Shown: positions 1,544 through 29,066, numbered from the stretch's first letter. The stretch: DNA of 64,000 nt from Escherichia coli (GCF_003019035.1 NZ_CP027447.1); one strand, 5' to 3'. Numbers and translations: made by a program. Notes: a model not told the origin generated them from the sequence alone.

Positions 1544-4171
1544 TTATTCTTCTTCTGGCTCGTCGTCAACGTCCACTTCCGGAGCGATTTCATCGTCCCC
1601 TTCCGCGGCACTGCCGTCGATGGTATCCAGATCTTCCTCGTCAACCGGTTCAGCAACACGTTGCAGACCCACTACGTTTTCATCTTCCGCAGTACGGATG
1701 AGGATCACACCCTGGGTGTTACGGCCCACGATGCTGATTTCTGAAACGCGAGTACGTACCAGCGTACCGGCATCGGTGATCATCATGATCTGGTCGCAGT
1801 CATCTACCTGCACTGCGCCAACCACTAAACCGTTACGTTCGGTAACCTTGATGGAAATAACCCCTTTCGTCGCACGCGACTTGGTTGGGTATTCCGCCAC
1901 TGCGGTACGTTTACCATAACCGTTCTGCGTTGCGGTGAGGATTGCGCCATCACCACGAGGTACGATCAGAGAGACGACTTTATCGCCTTCGCCTAAACGA
2001 ATACCGCGAACACCGGTGGTGTTGCAGCCCATCGCACGGACAGAAGACTCTTTAAAGCGCACCACTTTACCTTCAGCGGAGAACAGCATTACTTCATCTT
2101 CGCCACTGGTCAGGTCAACGCCGATCAGCTCATCGCCTTCAACCAGTTTGATCGCCACTTTACCGGCAGTACGCAGACGGTTGAATTCGGTGAGGACGGT
2201 TTTCTTCACAGTTCCGTTAGCGGTCGCCATGAAGACTTTCACGCCTTCTTCAAACTCGGTCACTGGCAGGATCGCAGTGATACGTTCGTCTTGCTCCAGC
2301 GGCAGCAGGTTGACGATCGGACGACCGCGCGCGCCACGAGTAGCTTCTGGCAACTGGTAGACCTTCATCGAATAGACGCGACCACGGCTGGAGAAGCACA
2401 GAATATGGTCGTGGGTATTCGCCACCAGCAGTCGGTCGATAAAGTCTTCTTCTTTAATACGTGCGGCAGATTTACCTTTACCGCCACGACGCTGCGCTTC
2501 GTATTCAGAAAGCGGCTGATACTTCACGTAGCCCTGGTGAGAGAGCGTCACGACCACATCTTCCTGGGTGATCAGATCTTCCAGGTTGATGTCTGCGCTG
2601 TTGGCGGTGATTTCAGTACGACGTTTGTCACCGAACTGTTCACGAACCAGCTCCAGCTCTTCGCGGATCACTTCCATCAGACGATCGGCGCTACCAAGAA
2701 TACGCAACAGTTCCGCGATCTGATCCAGCAGCTCTTTGTATTCGTCGAGCAGTTTTTCGTGCTCAAGGCCGGTCAGTTTCTGCAGACGCAGATCCAGAAT
2801 CGCCTGAGCTTGCTGTTCGGTCAGGTAGTACAGACCATCGCGCACGCCGAACTCTGGCTCCAGCCATTCCGGACGCGCAGCATCGTCGCCAGCACGTTCC
2901 AGCATCGCGGCAACGTTGCCCAGCTGCCACGGATTAGCAACCAGCGCGGTTTTCGCTTCTGCAGGCGTCGGCGCATGACGGATCAGTTCGATGATCGGGT
3001 CAATGTTCGCCAGCGCCACGGCTAATGCTTCAAGGATATGAGCACGATCGCGAGCTTTACGCAGTTCGAAAATAGTACGACGGGTCACCACTTCACGGCG
3101 GTGACGAACAAACGCCGCGATGATGTCTTTCAGGTTCATGATCTTCGGCTGACCATGGTGCAATGCCACCATGTTAATACCGAAAGAAACCTGCAACTGG
3201 GTCTGGGAGTAGAGGTTGTTGAGCACCACTTCACCGACCGCATCGCGTTTCACTTCAATCACGATGCGCATACCGTCTTTGTCAGACTCGTCACGCAGCG
3301 CGCTGATACCTTCCACGCGTTTTTCTTTTACCAGTTCCGCAATCTTCTCGATCAGGCGCGCTTTGTTCACCTGATACGGAATTTCATGGACGATAATGGT
3401 TTCACGTCCGGTTTTGGCGTCAACTTCCACTTCAGCACGGGCGCGGATATATACCTTGCCGCGACCGGTACGGTAAGCTTCTTCAATACCGCGACGACCA
3501 TTAATGATTGCCGCCGTCGGGAAGTCCGGCCCAGGAATGTGTTCCATCAGCCCTTCAATGCTGATGTCTTCATCATCGATATACGCCAGACAACCGTTGA
3601 TAACTTCCGTCAGGTTGTGCGGCGGGATGTTGGTTGCCATACCTACGGCGATACCGGAGGAACCGTTCACCAGCAGGTTAGGAATTTTGGTTGGCATGAC
3701 GTCCGGAATTTTTTCCGTGCCGTCATAGTTATCAACGAAATCGACCGTCTCTTTTTCGAGATCGGCCATCAGTTCATGGGCAATTTTCGCCAGACGGATT
3801 TCCGTATAACGCATTGCCGCCGCAGAGTCGCCGTCGATGGAACCGAAGTTACCCTGACCGTCTACCAGCATGTAACGCAGCGAGAATGGCTGCGCCATAC
3901 GGACGATCGTGTCATAAACCGCCGAGTCACCATGGGGATGGTATTTACCGATTACGTCACCAACGACACGGGCAGATTTTTTATAGGCTTTGTTCCAGTC
4001 ATTGCCTAGTACGTTCATGGCGTAAAGTACGCGACGGTGTACCGGCTTCAGGCCATCTCGGACATCCGGCAGCGCACGGCCAACAATGACCGACATCGCA
4101 TAATCCAGATAGGAGCTCTTCAGCTCTTCCTCAATGTTGACCGGTGTAATTTCTCTCGCAAGGTCGCTCAT
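1544..4171 (-). CDS. gyrA: DNA gyrase subunit A
   Basis: 875-aa ORF with the canonical E. coli GyrA sequence ([47 protein letters not shown]; active-site region; acidic C-terminal tail). QRDR reads [11 protein letters not shown], i.e. Ser83 and Asp87. Confidence 0.97.
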
Positions 4172-4384
4172 CTAACCGCTATCCCTCTACTGTATCCCGG
4201 ATTCAAAGGTCGGAGATTATAACACAATCGCTTGCGGACGGGTAAACGTAATGCAGGCTTCCGGGCGCTGTAGATCTACTGCGTTTTACCCCACCGCCAG
4301 CACACATCGCGCTGGCGGTGAACGACAAAGGAACAAAGACCGCAACACGCTTCCTGTGCCTCAATAAACACCAGAAATAATGGC

Positions 4385-4548
4385 TATACTCGTCATACTT
4401 CAAGTTGCATGTGCTGCGTCTGCGGGTTATTCGGCCCATCCATGGGCCTCACCCCTTACGGGGCCGCTGCAAGCAGCGTTCAAATCCGCTCCATGCGGAT
4501 TTGTCGCTCACCCCAGTCACTTACTTATGTAAGCTCCTTGGGATTCAC
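4385..4548. repeat. ERIC (enterobacterial repetitive intergenic consensus / IRU) element
   Basis: Both classic ERIC ends are present: actcgtcatacttcaagttgcatgtgctgcg at the left, and cgctcaccccagtcacttacttatgtaagctccttgggattcac at the right. The right end contains the complements of the standard ERIC2 and ERIC1R primer sequences. It is intergenic, between the gyrA promoter region and the island. Confidence 0.8.
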
Positions 4549-4599
4549 TCGCTTGTCGCCTTCCTGCAACTCGAATTATTTAGAGTATATAAATCGCCG

Positions 4600-5802
4600 T
4601 TATTTGATCACATAGGCAAGATATTGTTGTACGATTTCATCGTTTAATTCCTGACCAAGCCCAGGCAACTCTGGCGCGACATAATAGCCATTCTCGGGTT
4701 GATAATCGTAAGTACAAAGTTCCCGAATACATGCTTTCATCGCATTGGTATGATGTTCATGAATAATAAAGTTAGGTATTGCAGTTTCCATATGCAGCGC
4801 CGCTACTGTTGAAACAGGCCCGCCACAAACATGTACCTGAACGGTTGTGTCATATATATTGGCATAATCACAAATTTTCTTTCCCTCTGTAATGCCACCA
4901 CAAAGACACAAATCAGGTTGAGCTACCGCAATTGATTGTTTTTCCAGTAAATCACGATATCCCCAGCGAGTATAAGAACGCTCACCTGTTGCTATCGGAA
5001 TCGATGTTGAACGGGCAACTTTCTGCATATTATCCGAATTTAATGGATGAATTGGCTCCTCATAGAGAAAAATACGATATTTCTCTATTGCTTTGGCAAA
5101 CTGGATCGCTGAATTTGTTCCTAGAAGAGAATGAATCTCTACAATAATATCAGCATCGTCGCCCATTGCTTCACGCATAGCGGCAATTCTTGTCTCGCCC
5201 ATTTTTAATTGTTCGGCCAGTAATAAGCCAGAGTAATTTCTATTTTTGTTCTGAAAGACACAATCGCCGCCATGCAGATCGATTTCAAGCGGATCAACTT
5301 TTATCGCATTATAACCTTCTGCAATAGCGGCACGCGCTGCCTCTGCATACTCTTCAGGCGTTACTAATATTTGCCTTTTTTCGCCCCAACCAAATTGTAA
5401 CTGACTGGCGTAAGTTCTCAATTTATCGTTAGTCTTTCCCCCCAGTAGTTGATAAACCGGCACGTTTAAATATTTACCTTTAATATCCCATAAGGCAATA
5501 TCAATAGCGCTCATACCTGCGTAAAAAACATTACCACCGCCCATTCCCCAAAATGTTTTCCTGAAGAGGAATTCCCAAATCTTCTCAATGTTCAACGGAT
5601 CTTCACCAATGATGAGAGGGGCTAAATCTCTGATAATACCAACACCAGATTTTGCACCTGCGCCATAGGCTAATCCTACTTCGCCAACACCACTTATTCC
5701 AGCATCGGTATTAACCCGAATAAGTACTGGATTATAAGAGGCCATAGTTTGATCTCTTTTTTTGAGTTCGCAGTCAAAAATTTCTACAGATGTAATCTTC
5801 AT
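4600..5802 (-). CDS. Enolase-superfamily acid-sugar dehydratase (mandelate racemase/muconate lactonizing enzyme fold; D-galactonate/D-mannonate dehydratase-like)
   Basis: ORF 4600-5814; preferred start is the second ATG at 5802 (MKITSVEIF...), which has a GAGG Shine-Dalgarno 6 nt upstream. Motifs such as AIDIALWDIKGKYLNVPVYQLLGG and GERSYTRWGYRDLLEKQSIAVAQPDLCLCGGITEGKKI resemble DgoD/RspA/RhmD-type dehydratases. Substrate cannot be assigned. Confidence 0.8.
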   Translation of the reverse strand: MKITSVEIFDCELKKRDQTMASYNPVLIRVNTDAGISGVGEVGLAYGAGAKSGVGIIRDLAPLIIGEDPLNIEKIWEFLFRKTFWGMGGGNVFYAGMSAIDIALWDIKGKYLNVPVYQLLGGKTNDKLRTYASQLQFGWGEKRQILVTPEEYAEAARAAIAEGYNAIKVDPLEIDLHGGDCVFQNKNRNYSGLLLAEQLKMGETRIAAMREAMGDDADIIVEIHSLLGTNSAIQFAKAIEKYRIFLYEEPIHPLNSDNMQKVARSTSIPIATGERSYTRWGYRDLLEKQSIAVAQPDLCLCGGITEGKKICDYANIYDTTVQVHVCGGPVSTVAALHMETAIPNFIIHEHHTNAMKACIRELCTYDYQPENGYYVAPELPGLGQELNDEIVQQYLAYVIK

Positions 5803-5814
5803 AAATAACCTCAT

Positions 5815-7143
5815 TTATTTAGCATGTGAAATAACATTGTCTTTCTGGGCGTTATCTTTTTTATTATCAATTTTCATTGATAACAAAATAGCTACGGCGA
5901 TAAAGCAAAGAATCGCCTCAACAATAAATATCCCCGTGGCTCCATAATGTGTAGAAACATAGCCAAGTGATTTATTGATCAGAAAACCACCCAAACTTGA
6001 ACAAGAGTTAATAAACGCAATACTGATTGCCAGGCCTGATGGTGAAAGTAAAGCTGAGGGTAAAGCCCAGTACGGACCGTAATAACTGAGAATGCCTACA
6101 CCGTATAATGTTAATCCCATCATGCGCAGCGTCATCGAAGGTACAAGTGCGATCATTAAAAAACCGCAACCTGCAACCAACATCGGTAGTGCGGCATGCC
6201 ATTTCCTTTCATTCTTTTTATCGGAATGCCATCCCCATAATGGCATACTGAACATCGCGAAAATAAACGGAATACTCATAATCAAACCGACATCGGTATC
6301 TGTGAAATCCGATGAAAATCCTTTAACCAACCCCGGTAACCAGTAATTTGCCGCCAACGCCGCTGCCTGAATAAACATATAAGCAAATGAGAGTTGTAGT
6401 AATACTGGATTTTTAATGATTGACAGAAAAGATGCATTTGTATTTTTATTTAATGCTGCGGCTTTTTCGTTATCAGAATTAAGTTTATCGACCAATGCGG
6501 TGACTTGCGATGGTGTAAGCCAGCGGGCTTTTTCCGGACGATCTGGCAGTAAATAAAAGGTCAGCGCCCCCAATAACACCGTAGGAATGCCTTCAATAGC
6601 AAAAAGCCAGCGCCATCCTTCATAGTTACCGGTATTCATATGTTCAATAATCCAACCAGACATTGGTGCCGCCAGCACAGATGCAACTGCGATTGATAAC
6701 ATAAAAAAGCTATTCACTTTTCCACGTTCACGCGCCGGGAACCAACATGCCAGGTAGTAAACCATGCCAGGGAAAAAACCCGCTTCAAATATTCCCAAAA
6801 AGACCCGAGCGAGCAATATATGCTGGGTGTCTTTGGCAAAGAAAATTAACGTTGTTACTGTTCCCCAACCAACAATAATGGCGCTAATCCATTTTCTTGC
6901 ACCTAACTTTTGCAATCCAATACTGCTCGGAATTTGAAAAATCAAATAGGACACAAAAAATATTGAAGATATATTAGCAAAATCCTCTGGAGTAATACCA
7001 AGGGATTCATTCATGCGTAAAGCGGCAAATCCGATGTTAACACGATCCATATAGTTAAAAAAATACAGAATAAATGCTAACGGAATAATCTTCCTTTTCA
7101 CAATAGAAATGGCGTCATACAAATCTTTCTGAGGACTGCTCAT
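5815..7143 (-). CDS. MFS transporter, anion:cation symporter (ACS) family, putative sugar-acid permease
   Basis: 442-aa ORF with good SD (AAAGGTGA). Hydrophobic multi-helix protein with ACS signature regions ([33 protein letters not shown]) paralogous to RhmT in this window. Its stop abuts the dehydratase start. Confidence 0.85.
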   Translation of the reverse strand: MSSPQKDLYDAISIVKRKIIPLAFILYFFNYMDRVNIGFAALRMNESLGITPEDFANISSIFFVSYLIFQIPSSIGLQKLGARKWISAIIVGWGTVTTLIFFAKDTQHILLARVFLGIFEAGFFPGMVYYLACWFPARERGKVNSFFMLSIAVASVLAAPMSGWIIEHMNTGNYEGWRWLFAIEGIPTVLLGALTFYLLPDRPEKARWLTPSQVTALVDKLNSDNEKAAALNKNTNASFLSIIKNPVLLQLSFAYMFIQAAALAANYWLPGLVKGFSSDFTDTDVGLIMSIPFIFAMFSMPLWGWHSDKKNERKWHAALPMLVAGCGFLMIALVPSMTLRMMGLTLYGVGILSYYGPYWALPSALLSPSGLAISIAFINSCSSLGGFLINKSLGYVSTHYGATGIFIVEAILCFIAVAILLSMKIDNKKDNAQKDNVISHAK

Positions 7144-7233
7144 TTTGTTTCACCTTTTGTGCTTCAATGAATAAGAGTACTGCCCGAAGTGGATATTACG
7201 TAAAAAATAATCCAGTTCAAAAGGTGATGTGTT

Positions 7234-7249
7234 ATATCTGATATATCAG
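7234..7249. promoter_or_regulatory. Candidate operator 1 in the divergent MFS/GntR promoter region; contains the perfect 12-bp palindrome CTGATATATCAG
   Basis: atatctgatatat at 7234-7246, with the palindrome ctgatatatcag at 7238-7249. The same 13-mer recurs at 7304-7316. Located between divergent genes, one of which is a GntR regulator. Confidence 0.5.
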
Positions 7250-7303
7250 CTTGATCATTGATTGAAACACTAAGCTACAACAATAAGATATATCATTTTT
7301 GTC

Positions 7304-7316
7304 ATATCTGATATAT
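7304..7316. promoter_or_regulatory. Candidate operator 2 (second copy of ATATCTGATATAT)
   Basis: Exact 13-bp direct repeat of the 7234-7246 motif, 70 bp downstream and about 65 bp upstream of the GntR start codon. Confidence 0.45.
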
Positions 7317-7380
7317 TAGACACCTTCATTGATAAAATGATTACATATAATGGACCAGCAGCTTAATAAGGGGCAAAGGA

Positions 7381-8079
7381 ATGAGAGATAAAGCGAAACG
7401 TGACTTAAGTCACATATCAATTGAGATACCAAAATCCGTAACACAGGTCATCAAAGAAAAAATCAGGGATATGATAATTCATGGCGATCTCAGTCTTGGG
7501 CAACCGATAAGTGAAAATGAACTTTCGAATATCCTGGCGGTAAGTAAAACACCTATTCGTGAAGCTTTTATTTTACTTAGTCACAATGAAAATCTGATCA
7601 ATATCATTCCACGCAGCGGAACATTCGTTTTTTCCGTAACAGATAAAGATATTAATGACCTCATAAAAATGCGAGTAATTCTGGAGCAGGGTGCAATTCG
7701 TGAAGCAATGGAAAAGAATGAAAACAATGTCATCATTGAATTAAGTAGCATACTATCAAAATCAGCAAAAATTAATGCCGAGCGTGATACTCAGGCTTAT
7801 CTTAAATTGGATCATGATTTTCATTATGTGTTTGTTAAATACGCTGCTAATAAATACATCTCTCAGGCACACCAATTGATATCCGCACGTTTACTTGCTA
7901 TTCGTTATCGACTGGATTTCACTACGGAATATATTACCAATTCAAATCGTGGCCATGCCACTATTTTAGATATGCTAAAAAATAATAACGTTGAAGGTGT
8001 TTGTAATTTTATTACTCATCACGTAAGTAGTGGATTTACCGAGCGTGCACGAAAAATTCTCTCGTTATCTACACAGTAA
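7381..8079 (+). CDS. GntR-family (FadR/FCD-type) transcriptional regulator
   Basis: 232-aa ORF with an N-terminal winged-HTH pattern (LSLGQPISENELSNILAVSKTPIREAF) and a helical C-terminal ligand-binding-like domain. Divergent to the transporter-dehydratase pair; AGGGG SD 8 nt upstream. Confidence 0.8.
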   Translation: MRDKAKRDLSHISIEIPKSVTQVIKEKIRDMIIHGDLSLGQPISENELSNILAVSKTPIREAFILLSHNENLINIIPRSGTFVFSVTDKDINDLIKMRVILEQGAIREAMEKNENNVIIELSSILSKSAKINAERDTQAYLKLDHDFHYVFVKYAANKYISQAHQLISARLLAIRYRLDFTTEYITNSNRGHATILDMLKNNNVEGVCNFITHHVSSGFTERARKILSLSTQ

Positions 8080-8156
8080 AATGTGAATGAGTTTATAACA
8101 CTGGCACTTTTCACCTGCTATACTGCCCGACAACCTTTATAGACTCTTATGTAACA

Positions 8157-8879
8157 ATGAACACTGAAAATCTCCTTAAAAACAATAACGTAGACCACGA
8201 AGAGATCGCTAAATTTGAAGCCGTCGCCTCCCGCTGGTGGGATCTTGAAGGTGAGTTCAAACCGCTGCACCGCATTAACCCGCTGCGTCTGGGCTATATT
8301 GCCGAGCGTGCTGGCGGTTTATTTGGCAAAAAGGTGCTCGATGTCGGTTGTGGCGGCGGCATTCTGGCCGAGAGTATGGCGCGCGAAGGCGCGACGGTGA
8401 CCGGTCTGGATATGGGCTTTGAGCCATTGCAGGTGGCAAAGTTGCACGCGCTGGAAAGTGGCATTCAGGTAGAGTACGTGCAGGAAACCGTGGAAGAGCA
8501 CGCGGCAAAACATGCCGGGCAGTATGACGTGGTGACCTGCATGGAGATGCTGGAGCACGTGCCCGATCCGCAGTCAGTGGTCAGAGCCTGTGCGCAACTG
8601 GTGAAACCGGGCGGCGATGTCTTTTTCTCGACGCTTAACCGCAACGGCAAGTCATGGCTGATGGCGGTAGTCGGCGCAGAATATATTTTGCGCATGGTGC
8701 CTAAAGGTACACATGATGTGAAGAAGTTTATTAAACCGGCAGAATTGCTGGGCTGGGTGGATCAGACAAGCCTTAAAGAGCGGCATATGACTGGGCTGCA
8801 TTACAACCCGATCACTAATTCCTTTAAGCTCGGCCCCGGCGTGGATGTGAACTATATGCTGCATACGCAGAATAAGTGA
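8157..8879 (+). CDS. ubiG: Bifunctional 3-demethylubiquinone-9 3-O-methyltransferase / 2-polyprenyl-6-hydroxyphenol methylase
   Basis: 240-aa ORF with SAM-binding motif [13 protein letters not shown] and an otherwise UbiG-typical sequence ([46 protein letters not shown]). Confidence 0.95.
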
Positions 8880-8914
8880 GGTTGTTGTTTGGATTCAGCC
8901 GACGACCGAGCCAA

Positions 8915-8996
8915 GCCTGATGCGACGCTTGCCGCGTCTTATCAGGCCTACAAATGCTCCCGTAGGCCAGATAAGGCGTTTACGCCGCATCCGGCA
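8915..8996. repeat. REP/BIME element (two inverted REP units)
   Basis: gcctgatgcgacgcttgccgcgtcttatcaggcctac followed by the inverted unit gtaggccagataaggcgtttacgccgcatccggca, lying between convergent ubiG and yfaL. Confidence 0.8.
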
Positions 8997-9017
8997 ACAG
9001 TGCCGGTCAGACAGCGA

Positions 9018-12000
9018 TTACCATTTCACTGTCATCGACAAAAACCCTGCCGTCTGGGCAAAATCATCACTCCCTTTCTGCCACGCCACGCTACCACGCA
9101 GCGAAACTCGCTGACTGATATTGCCCGTTATTCCCACTTTTATTTCACCCCGTTGCTTCACCGCATCGTCACTGATAGTGCTGCCATCTTCTTCAATTTC
9201 CGTCGCATGGGGATCGTGATAATAATTCAGATCTAATGTTGGTATGACACCAACCGCGGTACGCCATTCGCTGTGTAAACCCAGCCGCGTTTGAATATCA
9301 TCACCCTGCGATTGTGACACCCGCGCATGGTTAGCAGCGGTGAAATCATCCTGCTGCACGCCCTGATAAATCACCTGCGCCTGTGGTTCAATCACCACTC
9401 CATGCCCCGGTAACCACTGATACCCGGCTTCCAGCGAGGCGATAATCCCCGATGAGTGGTAATGATCCGCGCCATCTTCATGTTCGGAAACATCATTGTT
9501 AAACCACGCGTATTGCAGCCAGCTATCCAGCCAGGCCCCCTGCTTCTGATTACCGTGCTGGAACCAGCTTGAGGTCAGACCAACGGCATAACCGTGGTTC
9601 TGGTTATCGGCGCGAGTTCCGGTCATATTCGAGCGGCTGTCGCCCTGGTTATCACTGTAGCCACCAACCGCCCCAAGCATCCACTCGCCATCCATGCCCC
9701 AGCGCCCGCTAAACAAGTCGCCGCTAAGCTGCACCGTAGAAGTGTCTTCATGCTGAGCCAGTTGCCCCGCTGCTGTGTAATGATAATCTCCGCCGATAAC
9801 ACGTAAATTCAGCGTCTGACCATCGCCACCAGCGTGATCGCGTCGCTCCATCACAAATGCCTGATTTGCCGCACGTAGGTTATTGAGATAGCCACCAACT
9901 TTGGCATTCAGCACCGGCTGGTAGGCAGGCGTAGGGGCTGGAGCCGGGTCGGGTGTTGGATCAGGATCCGGCGTAGGATCAGGATCTGGAGTCGGGTCTG
10001 GATCGGGCGGCGATGGTGGCGTTACTTCTTGCGATCGCAGATACCAGTCGTTGTTATCTTCCACCAGCGTGTAGTCATACGCTCCCATATTGACGTAGCC
10101 GCTGCCCGCCAGACTGAACTGCGCATTGTTTTGAAATTGCGTTGGATCGGCTGCGAAATCAACCACTTTAATGCCCGTAGATGTCGGCTCACCAATACCC
10201 GTAATGGGATTAATTACCACGGTCGTGTTGCCAGCAGTATTACCGTTCAACACCAGTTGGTCGCTTGCCGAGTCATCGCCGTTTAATTCGCTGTCGAGAA
10301 ACAACGTACCGCCACCGGTGTAATCACCGTTTACCGTGAGCGTGTCGCCAGCAACGCCATTTTGCAGACTGACAGCACCGGAAGTATTAGTTAGATCACC
10401 ATTGACCGTCACGTCTGAAAGATAAGTCAGGCTGTCAGTTTCAAGGTTGGTATTAAGCTCGCCTGTCAGCGTCACACCATCGGTGGCATTCACCAACGTA
10501 CCGTCGCCGCTAAACAGCGAGGCATCCAGCGCCTGGTTCGTATCCTGCTGCGTCAATCGCAACACAGTACCATCGGTTATGTCGATATCGCCGCCAGAGG
10601 TGGCATCGATTGAACGAATATCCTGATTTTGCCCGGTTTCAAAAACACCGTCTTCCCCCACCCACAGTGAAGAAACATAAGGAATAATATTCTCCGCTTC
10701 ACCTTTTAGCGTTCCGTCCTCCACACGTACCGCAGACGTCGCAGTGCCGCTGGCGGTCAACTCCAGCGTCCCGCCGCCACTTTTAGTCAACGTGCTTACG
10801 CTATCCAGTTGTTGCCCGGTACTATCCGCCATCAACCCGCCCCATTGCGTATCTACGCCATCCTCAACGTGTATTTCGCCATCAGCGCGCATTTCAATAT
10901 TCCTGCCCTGACCTGTTGTAGCCGAGCGAGTGTCAACATCAGTCGTCACATCCATTTCACTGTGTTGTTGGGGATCTGTGAAGATCACTGAACGGTTGTA
11001 ACTTGTGTCCCCCAATTGCGAATTATCGCTGACTTCAAGCGTACCGGAGGCGATTTGCGTATTACCGAGATAACCGTTGTTATTCGCCAGCGTTACGCGC
11101 TGATCCCCCGCATTAATGACGACATAAACGCCATTCTGGCTGGCATCACTGCCGCCAATATGTAAATCATCGCCACTGCTGATATCAACGACATCATTAC
11201 TACCAATCACTGTCCCCCCGCTGCCGCTGATTTGCAGACCGTCATTGTATGAGCTATCGCCATCCCAGGTGGTGAAATCAGAGAGATCCAATACTCCGCC
11301 ATTTAGCACGATCGATTGCGGATCGCTCTGCATTGCCCGTAAATCGGCCTGATTCCCCGCCAGCGACAATACGGCGTTATCTTCCACCACAATATCGCCG
11401 GTTAATGCCATCGACTGCGCCCCTGTCAGGAGATAGCTGCCATCTTGCGCTACCGTCAACTGTCCTTCACCCTGAATCGAGCCGGAAAAACCGCCCTGGT
11501 TTACGGTAACATTGCCGCCTGCGTCGATATTCAAAATGCCATTAGCAAAACCGGTTAATGAGTGCACAAACGTTTGTTGTGTATTGCCAACATTCAGTTC
11601 TGCCTGATACTCAGAATGAACAGTGCTGCCGACCATCAGACCAAAGCAATCCTGCGGATCGCTCTGACAGTGCGTGTCGCCGACATTCATTAACTCATCG
11701 CTGCGCCCCAACGTCACCTCGCCATTCTGGATACTCATCTCGCCGGTAAACGCATTATTGTCGGCATTGAGGACTAACTCTCCCGCTCCCTCTTTAACGA
11801 TGACTCCCGTTCCGGCAAGAGAATCAATCGCGCCATCGTTGCTGGTATTGCCTATTACCAGCGTTTTATCGGCGGCAATGTTAAATTCAGCCACACTATG
11901 ACCGATATACATAAAGCCCCCCGCCGCTGCCGTCGCCGAATGGTCATATCCCGAGGCGCTGTTATTTTCATCAATCATCACACCATTGTTTTGGTCATAA

Positions 12001-28262: not shown

Positions 28263-29066
28263 TCAATAACTACCTTTTACGCGTGGCCCATTTTTGCCTG
28301 ATTCAAACATCGCCAGTCGTTGATCCAGGGCATCGCTGTAGAGCATCGTGTCAACGCCAACAGCGACAAAGTTCGCTCCCCACGCCAGGCATTGCTGCGC
28401 CATATCAGGAGCCACAGCCAGAAAACCAGCAGCTTTACCCGCAGCACGGATCCGCCGAATACTGGTTTCAATAATTCGCTGCACTTCCGGGTGCCCGGCG
28501 TTATCCGGGTAGCCCAACGACGCAGAAAGATCCGCAGGTCCAATAAACACGCCATCAATCCCTTCGACGTCGAGGATTTCGTCCAGGTTATCCAGTGCCG
28601 TCTTACTTTCCACCTGCACCAACAGACAAAGCGAATCGTTGACGTGCGCCATGTAATTCTCAATGCGTCCCCAGCGAGCAGCCCGTGCCACACTGGCCCC
28701 AACACCACGCTCACCGTAGGGAGGATAGCGCGTGGCAGACACCACCTGACGTGCCTGATCGGCAGTATCGACCATCGGGATCAGTAGAGTTTGCGCGCCA
28801 ATATCCAGGACTTGTTTAATCAGCGACTTACTGGCTTCCACCGGACGGATCACGGGTTGGCTGGCATAGGGCGCTACCGCCTGTAGCTGGTGATAAAGAT
28901 CCTGAATGGTGTTTGGCGCGTGCTCCCCGTCAATCAGCAACCAGTCATAACCGGAGGTGGCGGCAATTTCTGCCATATAAGAAGTAGTCGAGCTTAACCA
29001 CAGACCAATTTGCACTTCGCCCTTGCGTAAACGTTCTTTAAAGGGATTGCTTAATAATGCGTTCAT
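28263..29066 (-). CDS. rhmA: 2-keto-3-deoxy-L-rhamnonate aldolase
   Basis: ORF 28263-29369. Preferred start is ATG 29066 ([26 protein letters not shown]), giving 267 aa; HpcH/HpaI aldolase family. Confidence 0.9.

Follow-up and report, generated by a model that had tools for sequence, protein, structure and literature searches.

The ERIC elements, or IRUs, of enterobacteria are reportedly 127-bp miniature inverted-repeat elements, and their description is attributed to Sharples and Lloyd in 1990 and to Hulton et al. in 1991. For ERICs, insertions of about 70 bp at particular sites within the element are said to have been reported in 1997 by Sharp and by Cromie, Collins and Leach (Mol Microbiol 24), and Wilson and Sharp reportedly summarized these insertions of about 70 bp in 2006. 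The rttR repeat units of the Escherichia coli tyrT-tyrV operon, which correspond to RtT RNA (RF00391), are in turn said to go back to Bosl and Kersten in 1991. The locus described here touches all of these systems. It lies between gyrA and ubiG in a window of 64,000 nucleotides of E. coli DNA (NZ_CP027447.1, positions counted from the first nucleotide of this stretch), which is 100% identical to strain SCU-301. The element at this locus is an ordinary ERIC that contains an insertion of the class already known. Taken together, the observations are very probably explained by a canonical 127-bp ERIC with one nested module, here called module A, forming a composite noncoding mobile repeat that entered the gyrA-ubiG island late.

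The assignment to the ERIC family, already made in the first-pass annotation, was borne out, as both primer sites and the terminal repeats are present and the element matches a multicopy family. The reverse complement of the ERIC2 primer matches positions 4505-4526 exactly, while the ERIC1R primer matches 21 of 22 bases at 4527-4548, the one mismatch being a T at 4539 (primer sequences from PMC3696847). A 29-nt ERIC core occurs once in the 64-kb window, where shuffled sequence gives an expectation of 0. When the element was compared by megablast, it was found at 28,489 places in 5,425 of 5,426 complete E. coli genomes, with a median of five per genome, and relatives were also found in Escherichia, Citrobacter, and Serratia.

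The limits of the element had first been drawn at 4385-4548, a span of about 164 bp said to hold both termini. Because ERIC-PCR primers point outward from the centre of the palindrome, position 4548 is the centre of the element and not its end. That interval includes only the left terminus and the central core; the right arm and the terminal GAGTATA fall outside it, and the element is therefore 205 bp long, from 4385 to 4589. It opens with TATACTC (4385-4391) and closes with GAGTATA (4583-4589), followed by TA at 4590-4591. The further claim that the element is an internal insertion variant longer than 127 bp proved right, since the orthologous allele measures 127 bp against 205 bp here. The extra sequence is not central, as had been supposed, and consists of one contiguous net insertion of 78 bp within the left arm, at 4425-4503.

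The left arm up to the insertion point (...GCTGCGTCTGCG) occupies 4385-4424 and is identical in the 127-bp allele. Module A follows on the minus strand at 4425-4503, where 79 nt stand in place of one canonical T, and contains four hairpins (4433-4448, 4452-4463, 4465-4478, and 4481-4503). The central core at 4504-4548 holds the ERIC2 and ERIC1R sites and, at 4544-4545 between GGGAT and TCAC, a vacant site, termed B, at which 32 other genomes carry the 71-bp module B. The right arm at 4549-4589 includes a further vacant site, C (GTCGCC-TT-CCTGC, at about 4560-4562), which is filled in E. albertii, E. whittamii, and Serratia sp. DD3. Apart from module A and a G-to-T change at 4539, the element is the same as the 127-bp orthologous allele of strains AF57 and IAI39. 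Since this orthologue is exactly 127 bp long, the copy in the window is a canonical ERIC plus a 78-bp block. Short open reading frames over the ERIC (4405-4647, 4409-4615, and 4203-4439) were set aside as spurious, being annotated in no RefSeq record.

Three lengths of ERIC are found at this locus, namely 127 bp (AF57 and IAI39), 205 bp (SCU-301), and 276 bp (ECCNB12-2 and SMS-3-5). The longest form carries both modules and occurs at the locus in 32 genomes, while the 205-bp form with module A alone is present only in SCU-301 among 5,426 genomes. Module B is a seamless addition of 71 bp between GGGAT and TCAC with no target duplication. The T at 4539 is found in seven genomes, all of them at this locus, comprising the window allele and six 127-bp alleles, and an exact 28-mer search found no ERIC with this T at any other E. 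coli locus.

Both modules are found in ERICs well beyond the gyrA-ubiG locus. There are 648 genomes that carry module A and 616 that carry module B, usually as one copy per genome, and copies of either are 96-100% identical among unrelated loci and phylogroups. Each occupies a fixed site in a fixed orientation, and ERICs with neither module, with A, with B, and with both all occur. Module A is found at yehL-yehK in UTI89, at preT-yeiS in WCHEC005237, and, with substitutions and an internal deletion, at the same site in the yajO-dxs ERIC; module B stands alone at rpnC-panC in O157:H7; and A and B occur together at argP-rpiA in E2348/69. The A+B composite at gyrA-ubiG is about 99% identical to this last one, which is consistent with insertion as a composite. 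The junction of module A is the same at argP-rpiA, yehL-yehK, and preT-yeiS, the three other loci that are fully readable, and the sharing of so odd a junction by every such locus suggests templated copying from one original event. At preT-yeiS, three tiers are again seen (an empty site, a 127-bp ERIC, and an ERIC with module A), and here the ERIC has a clean TA duplication. The third site, C, in the right arm, is filled in E. albertii, E. whittamii, and Serratia; in Serratia sp. DD3, one ERIC carries A, B, and C nested at three internal sites (about 4590-4960 of the locus read). In Escherichia sp. MOD1-EC7003, the central core and some of the right arm are missing from the preT-yeiS ERIC with module A (...CACCCCAGTCACTTGTCGCC..., about 2400-2560 of the locus read), an internal deletion of the sort reported for ERICs.

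As to how the 205-bp allele arose, the evidence leans toward stepwise erasure (276 to 205 to 127 bp) over the gain of module A. A 276-bp composite with both modules would have lost module B to give the window allele, the loss occurring through gene conversion from the abundant canonical ERIC copies in the genome, and the window allele would thus be an intermediate in the stepwise removal of modules. Erasure is favoured because the SCU-301 genome has a single copy of module A, leaving no internal donor for a gain, because canonical ERIC donors are abundant, and because the odd junction of module A, being the same at every locus, suggests templated copying. The T at 4539 fits equally well with erasure and with the gain of module A by a T-marked 127-bp ERIC. 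An attempt to root the alleles on the 25-kb flanks of eight genomes gave a mosaic, with 200-380 SNPs per pair and no consistent nearest neighbour, and the 3 kb around the ERIC held almost no sites informative for rooting. A simple crossover, with an A+B left half joined to a T-marked 127-bp right half, found no support, as the right flanks of the window resemble those of A+B strains and not those of SCU-172.

The strongest alternative, which we nevertheless regard as rather unlikely, is that module A was inserted, or ectopically converted, into a resident T-marked 127-bp ERIC, the modules being currently mobile and homing to fixed sites. The restriction of the T to the window allele and six 127-bp alleles would follow from such a gain, and the preT-yeiS locus has the look of a recent one, in that its A-bearing alleles form a tight group (flanks 99.7% identical) and its 127-bp alleles are more diverse. 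The near-identity of A and B copies over unrelated loci and phylogroups, and the seamless presence or absence of the 71-bp module B with no target duplication, point the same way. Against these stand the want of a second copy of module A in SCU-301 to act as donor and the single copy found in most A-bearing genomes. The idiosyncratic junction, in which 79 nt replace one T in the same manner across loci, also argues for templated copying over repeated independent transposition.

The minus-strand RNA of the element is predicted to fold at -93.4 kcal/mol (z = -8.5), with the ERIC arms pairing across the module. An alignment of 15 hand-curated ERIC modules, ranging from Escherichia to Serratia, resolves into four hairpins separated by conserved linkers, with 97.2% of the alignment cells paired. 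Double-sided changes occur in 15 of 24 base pairs, a level that none of 500 shuffles reached. Modules A and B therefore have a conserved four-helix fold with compensatory changes, and this covariation fits selection on RNA and selection on single-stranded DNA alike.

The modules were also compared with Rfam families. A scan of the region against Rfam returned nothing above the gathering score, and weak partial matches to RF02818 V_AS5, isrH, isrK, and CRISPR-DR36 were discarded. On the minus strand, module A aligns over the full model of AaHKsRNA22 (RF02902) with 28.5-29.1 bits (E of 0.0006-0.002), below the gathering score of 39.8, while the ERIC module of Serratia sp. DD3 reaches 48.5 bits with the same model and exceeds that score. 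The RtT model (RF00391, gathering score 45), which gives the RtT units of K-12 133-137 bits, had no match in 4400-4530 even at E values up to 10. A covariance model built from ERIC modules only, R1, whose calibration is rough, scores the window module A at 103 bits and assigns 33 and 31 bits (E of about 1e-5) to units in Dokdonella that Rfam calls RtT. R1 also finds all four RtT units of K-12 at the correct place and strand, with 15.4-16.3 bits and, under this rough calibration, an E of about 0.001 in a 2-kb region, the match covering hairpins II-IV only. Since the Rfam RtT model is silent and the RF02902 match falls short of the gathering score, the link to E. coli RtT rests on R1, on the linker motifs, and on transitive similarity through Dokdonella.

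When representative genomes were scanned with a pattern built on module A, a choice that biases the sample for the non-enteric examples, ERICs were found in other enterics and tandem units in Dokdonella, other Lysobacterales, and Mariprofundus. These tandem units are complete or partial tRNA copies with a module placed exactly between TTCGA of the T-loop and ATCC. Copies of tRNA-Tyr, tRNA-Ser, and tRNA-Gln are interrupted in this way, an intact copy of the same tRNA adjoins, and the interrupting modules are 78-84 nt long with four hairpins (8464-9180 and 3776-4137 on the Dokdonella locus; 58-375 in Mariprofundus). The tRNA-Gln units of Dokdonella are RtT RNA by Rfam, above the gathering score, and the K-12 tyrT-tyrV-rttR repeats have the same layout, with GGUUCGA before the core and AUCCUUCCCCCACCACCA after it. 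Read in the sense of the module, the ERIC sites are GAGTGA^ATCC (B), GAGCGA^(A)CGC (A), and GCAGGA^AGG (C), and by their sequence the three can be classed as T-loop-like half-sites. The Delihas RU-3 repeat was considered as a match and set aside, being a different 103-bp element.

From these sequence comparisons, the ERIC modules appear to be related to the core of RtT RNA and to the tRNA T-loop modules. No paper linking RtT with ERIC inserts was found in the literature searched, the 1997 letters on ERIC insertions being outside its coverage. A broader reading is held tentatively, at somewhat less than even probability. Here, the four-hairpin block of about 70-85 nt would constitute a distinct family, widespread in the Proteobacteria, that encodes no protein, is native to the T-loops of spare tRNAs, and is the source of RtT-type RNAs. 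It would have colonised ERICs at three GA^A(U/C)C sites and would still be gained or erased within single E. coli lineages. If this is true, the tyrT RtT repeats, the ERIC insertions, and sRNA22 of Aggregatibacter are one family with site-specific insertion, and the enterobacterial case is a mobile element nested in a mobile element.

In the sense of the minus strand, the ERIC begins 10 nt past the stop codon of a gene of the enolase superfamily (mandelate racemase / muconate lactonizing enzyme family; 4600-5814, minus strand), and so lies in the presumed 3′ untranslated region of that gene. The gene for an MFS transporter is next to it (5815-7143, minus strand). No intrinsic terminator was found between the enolase-family gene and gyrA (1544-4171, minus strand), and consensus scans of 4100-4750 for promoters and terminators were empty. 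Judging from this arrangement, the ERIC is probably co-transcribed as the 3′ end of the operon for the transporter and the enolase-family protein. The 3′ RNA of the operon is predicted to form the long ERIC hairpin, from which the module branches off as four hairpins. Any effect would be on the stability or processing of the mRNA 3′-end, or would shield the gyrA promoter from read-through. In Yersinia, reviews describe ERICs that change mRNA stability in a manner dependent on their orientation, and by analogy the ERIC in the window could alter 3′-end stability or shield the gyrA promoter. Because close strains carry no module, one, or two, or have no ERIC, any such effect of the ERIC or its module is dispensable, and selfish persistence of both is the default view.

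A departure from that default, in which the module is kept because it supplies a functional RNA and the ERIC is a mere carrier, is considered improbable. What is released from the 3′ untranslated region of the operon would then be a small RNA like RtT, or a signal for processing or stability. From Escherichia to Serratia, the four helices of the module are retained, with compensatory changes, its sense on the transcribed (minus) strand is that of RtT and RF02902, and RtT itself is described in the literature as a stable, processed RNA from the tyrT operon. The orientation-dependent effects of the Yersinia ERICs on mRNA stability may be added to this side. On the other side, the module is dispensable at the locus, given that close strains range from two modules down to none or lack the ERIC altogether, and only about 12% of E. 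coli genomes have even one copy of module A. Moreover, selection on DNA structure for mobility would also maintain the covariation of the hairpins.

The ERIC lies within an island that is absent from K-12, in which the gyrA-ubiG spacer measures 146 bp and contains no ERIC. Common to both is a gyrA promoter-like region on the minus strand at 4216-4247, identified by sequence motifs only (TGTTATAAT at 4216-4224 and GTTTACC at 4241-4247); a consensus promoter scan made no call at 4216-4247, probably owing to too long a spacer. Similarity to K-12 breaks directly upstream of the gyrA -35-like hexamer, at about 4251/4252, leaving 134 bp between the break and the ERIC, and returns at about 8186, at codon 10 of ubiG (8157-8879, plus strand), the right breakpoint thus falling inside ubiG with no repeat. 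From this break in similarity, the island can be described as a 3.9-kb replacement segment. It extends over 4252-8185 and comprises a spacer, the ERIC, the enolase-family and MFS genes, a gene for a GntR/FCD regulator (7381-8079, plus strand), and an alternative ubiG promoter with the first nine codons of ubiG. Over codons 1-9 (8157-8185), ubiG reads MNTENLLKN in island strains and MNAEKSPVN in K-12, and the sequence upstream differs as well, so that the ubiG start and promoter come with the island.

Several features of individual island strains were recorded alongside. In every RefSeq record examined, the GntR-family regulator of the island (7337-8079 in the window) is annotated as a frameshifted pseudogene; in the window, it is nevertheless an intact open reading frame of 232 amino acids with GntR and FCD domains. 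In strain AF57, IS1 takes the place of most of the island (the MFS gene and parts of the enolase-family and GntR genes; IS1 at 2023-3687 within the AF57 locus read), and the 127-bp ERIC is left intact. Compared with all other island strains, the window differs by 12-30 SNPs per kb over 6966-8962, which covers the GntR gene and ubiG, and by 1-7 per kb over 4037-6965, and this rise in density points to a recombination tract of its own in SCU-301.

Positions 4252-4384, between the ERIC and the gyrA promoter region, form the island-specific spacer, and a query with 4237-4384 was present in 142 of 5,426 genomes. The spacer includes, at 4292-4320, a perfect hairpin with a 10-bp stem (CACCGCCAGC...GCTGGCGGTG) and no run of T after it. 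Both flanks of the ERIC were joined as one query, and the distance between them was taken in each genome for a sample of 60 rows of the 142 island-bearing genomes. The flanks span 595 bp in 14 rows, corresponding to the 276-bp ERIC, and 446 or 443 bp in 28 rows, corresponding to the 127-bp ERIC, while in 17 rows they span 320 or 321 bp, the island being complete and the ERIC absent. The empty site, read at three loci, is ...AATAATGGCCTTAAATCGCC..., and compared with it the ERIC site lacks 2 nt (CT) of a perfect TA duplication. The haplotypes at these three loci are more divergent, their flanks being 96.9-98.8% identical to the window. Since divergent island-bearing strains show an empty site, the ERIC entered after the island, and the simplest reading is a single insertion into an island already present.

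The first-pass annotation had placed the repeat at the exact boundary between the accessory module and the conserved sequence upstream of gyrA, and had taken it to mark or to have helped create the insertion junction, for instance as a substrate for recombination. The ERIC does lie within the leftmost 340 bp of the 3.9-kb variable segment, and for other genera, it has been proposed that such repeats promote plasticity (PMC3184786). Homology to K-12, however, ends at about 4251, 134 bp to the left of the ERIC, the right breakpoint in ubiG has no repeat, and the ERIC is the only one in the whole 64-kb window. The gyrA-ubiG spacer of island-free genomes is uniformly short and holds no ERIC, the repeat has no positional relation to the junction, and the site is empty in divergent island strains, so that a role at the boundary is very unlikely indeed. 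It is just as implausible that the 205-bp allele is an artefact of the SCU-301 assembly in which a 71-bp block collapsed within a palindromic repeat; the allele is a singleton among 5,426 genomes and long palindromes are prone to assembly error, but module B is missing exactly and in register, the T at 4539 nearby recurs independently in six other assemblies, and ERICs with module A only are found at other loci in many genomes.

As it was originally stated, the finding carries little weight, the ERIC having played no role in how the gyrA-ubiG island formed. What adds interest is the allelic series and the apparent kinship of the ERIC inserts with RtT and the T-loop modules. The locus offers a near-isogenic series of no island, an island with an empty site, and ERICs of 127, 205, and 276 bp. 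As this series lies immediately upstream of the gyrA promoter, it provides a ready system for the effects of ERICs and their inserts on mRNA ends and on a neighbouring essential promoter. A link among the inserts, RtT, and the T-loop would join an orphan RNA of 1991, the ERIC insertions of 1997, and an sRNA family of Rfam, and would point to an unrecognised process of site-specific insertion at T-loop-like DNA.

Compared with the known systems, the element resembles the standard ERIC/IRU in having both primer sites in its core and TATAC...GTATA terminal repeats flanked by TA. It is likewise intergenic, located at the 3′ end of a gene, multicopy, able to form a long RNA hairpin by prediction, and polymorphic for filled and empty sites. 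It differs from the standard form in measuring 205 bp instead of 127 bp, on account of the nested 78-bp module, and in its imperfect TA duplication, from which 2 nt are missing. The modules agree with the ERIC insertions ascribed to 1997 in size class (78 and 71 bp), in their fixed internal sites, in the retention of the long hairpin, and in being well folded themselves. To our knowledge, those reports include neither orthologous alleles with no module, with A, and with A+B inside one E. coli lineage, nor site C and a Serratia ERIC with A, B, and C, nor a kinship of the inserts with RtT and the tRNA T-loop modules.

Analogies may also be drawn with the PATEs, hairpin-ended miniature elements derived from IS200/IS605, and with REP/REPIN elements, all mobilised by HUH Y1 transposases, which the modules resemble in outline in having hairpins at their ends and no terminal inverted repeats. 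The seamless entry of module B without target duplication and the orientation fixed to a short target, GA^A(U/C)C, would also suit such elements. In contrast, the junction of module A replaces a base, and the cleavage-site logic of that family is not recognised in the module. With AaHKsRNA22 (RF02902), the four hairpins and the linkers ACAAA...UUUGAACG...CCCC.AAGGGG.GAG...CGA align over the full model, the window copy remaining under the gathering score (28.5-29.1 versus 39.8 bits). In relation to RtT, the differences are that the sequence of hairpin I is not the same, that the Rfam RtT model gives the window module no score, and that the module is flanked by ERIC sequence (GAGCGA before and CGCAG after, minus strand) with no tRNA gene adjacent, whereas RtT is flanked by the halves of a tRNA T-arm and the acceptor end (...GGUUCGA, the core, then AUCCUUCCCCCACCACCA). 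The window module nevertheless shares with RtT the linker motifs, the sense on the transcribed strand, and the order of the core, in which GA is followed by a hairpin, GAAC, a second hairpin, a third hairpin of the form GGCCC..GGG, GAG, a fourth hairpin, and GA(A/G)UAA.
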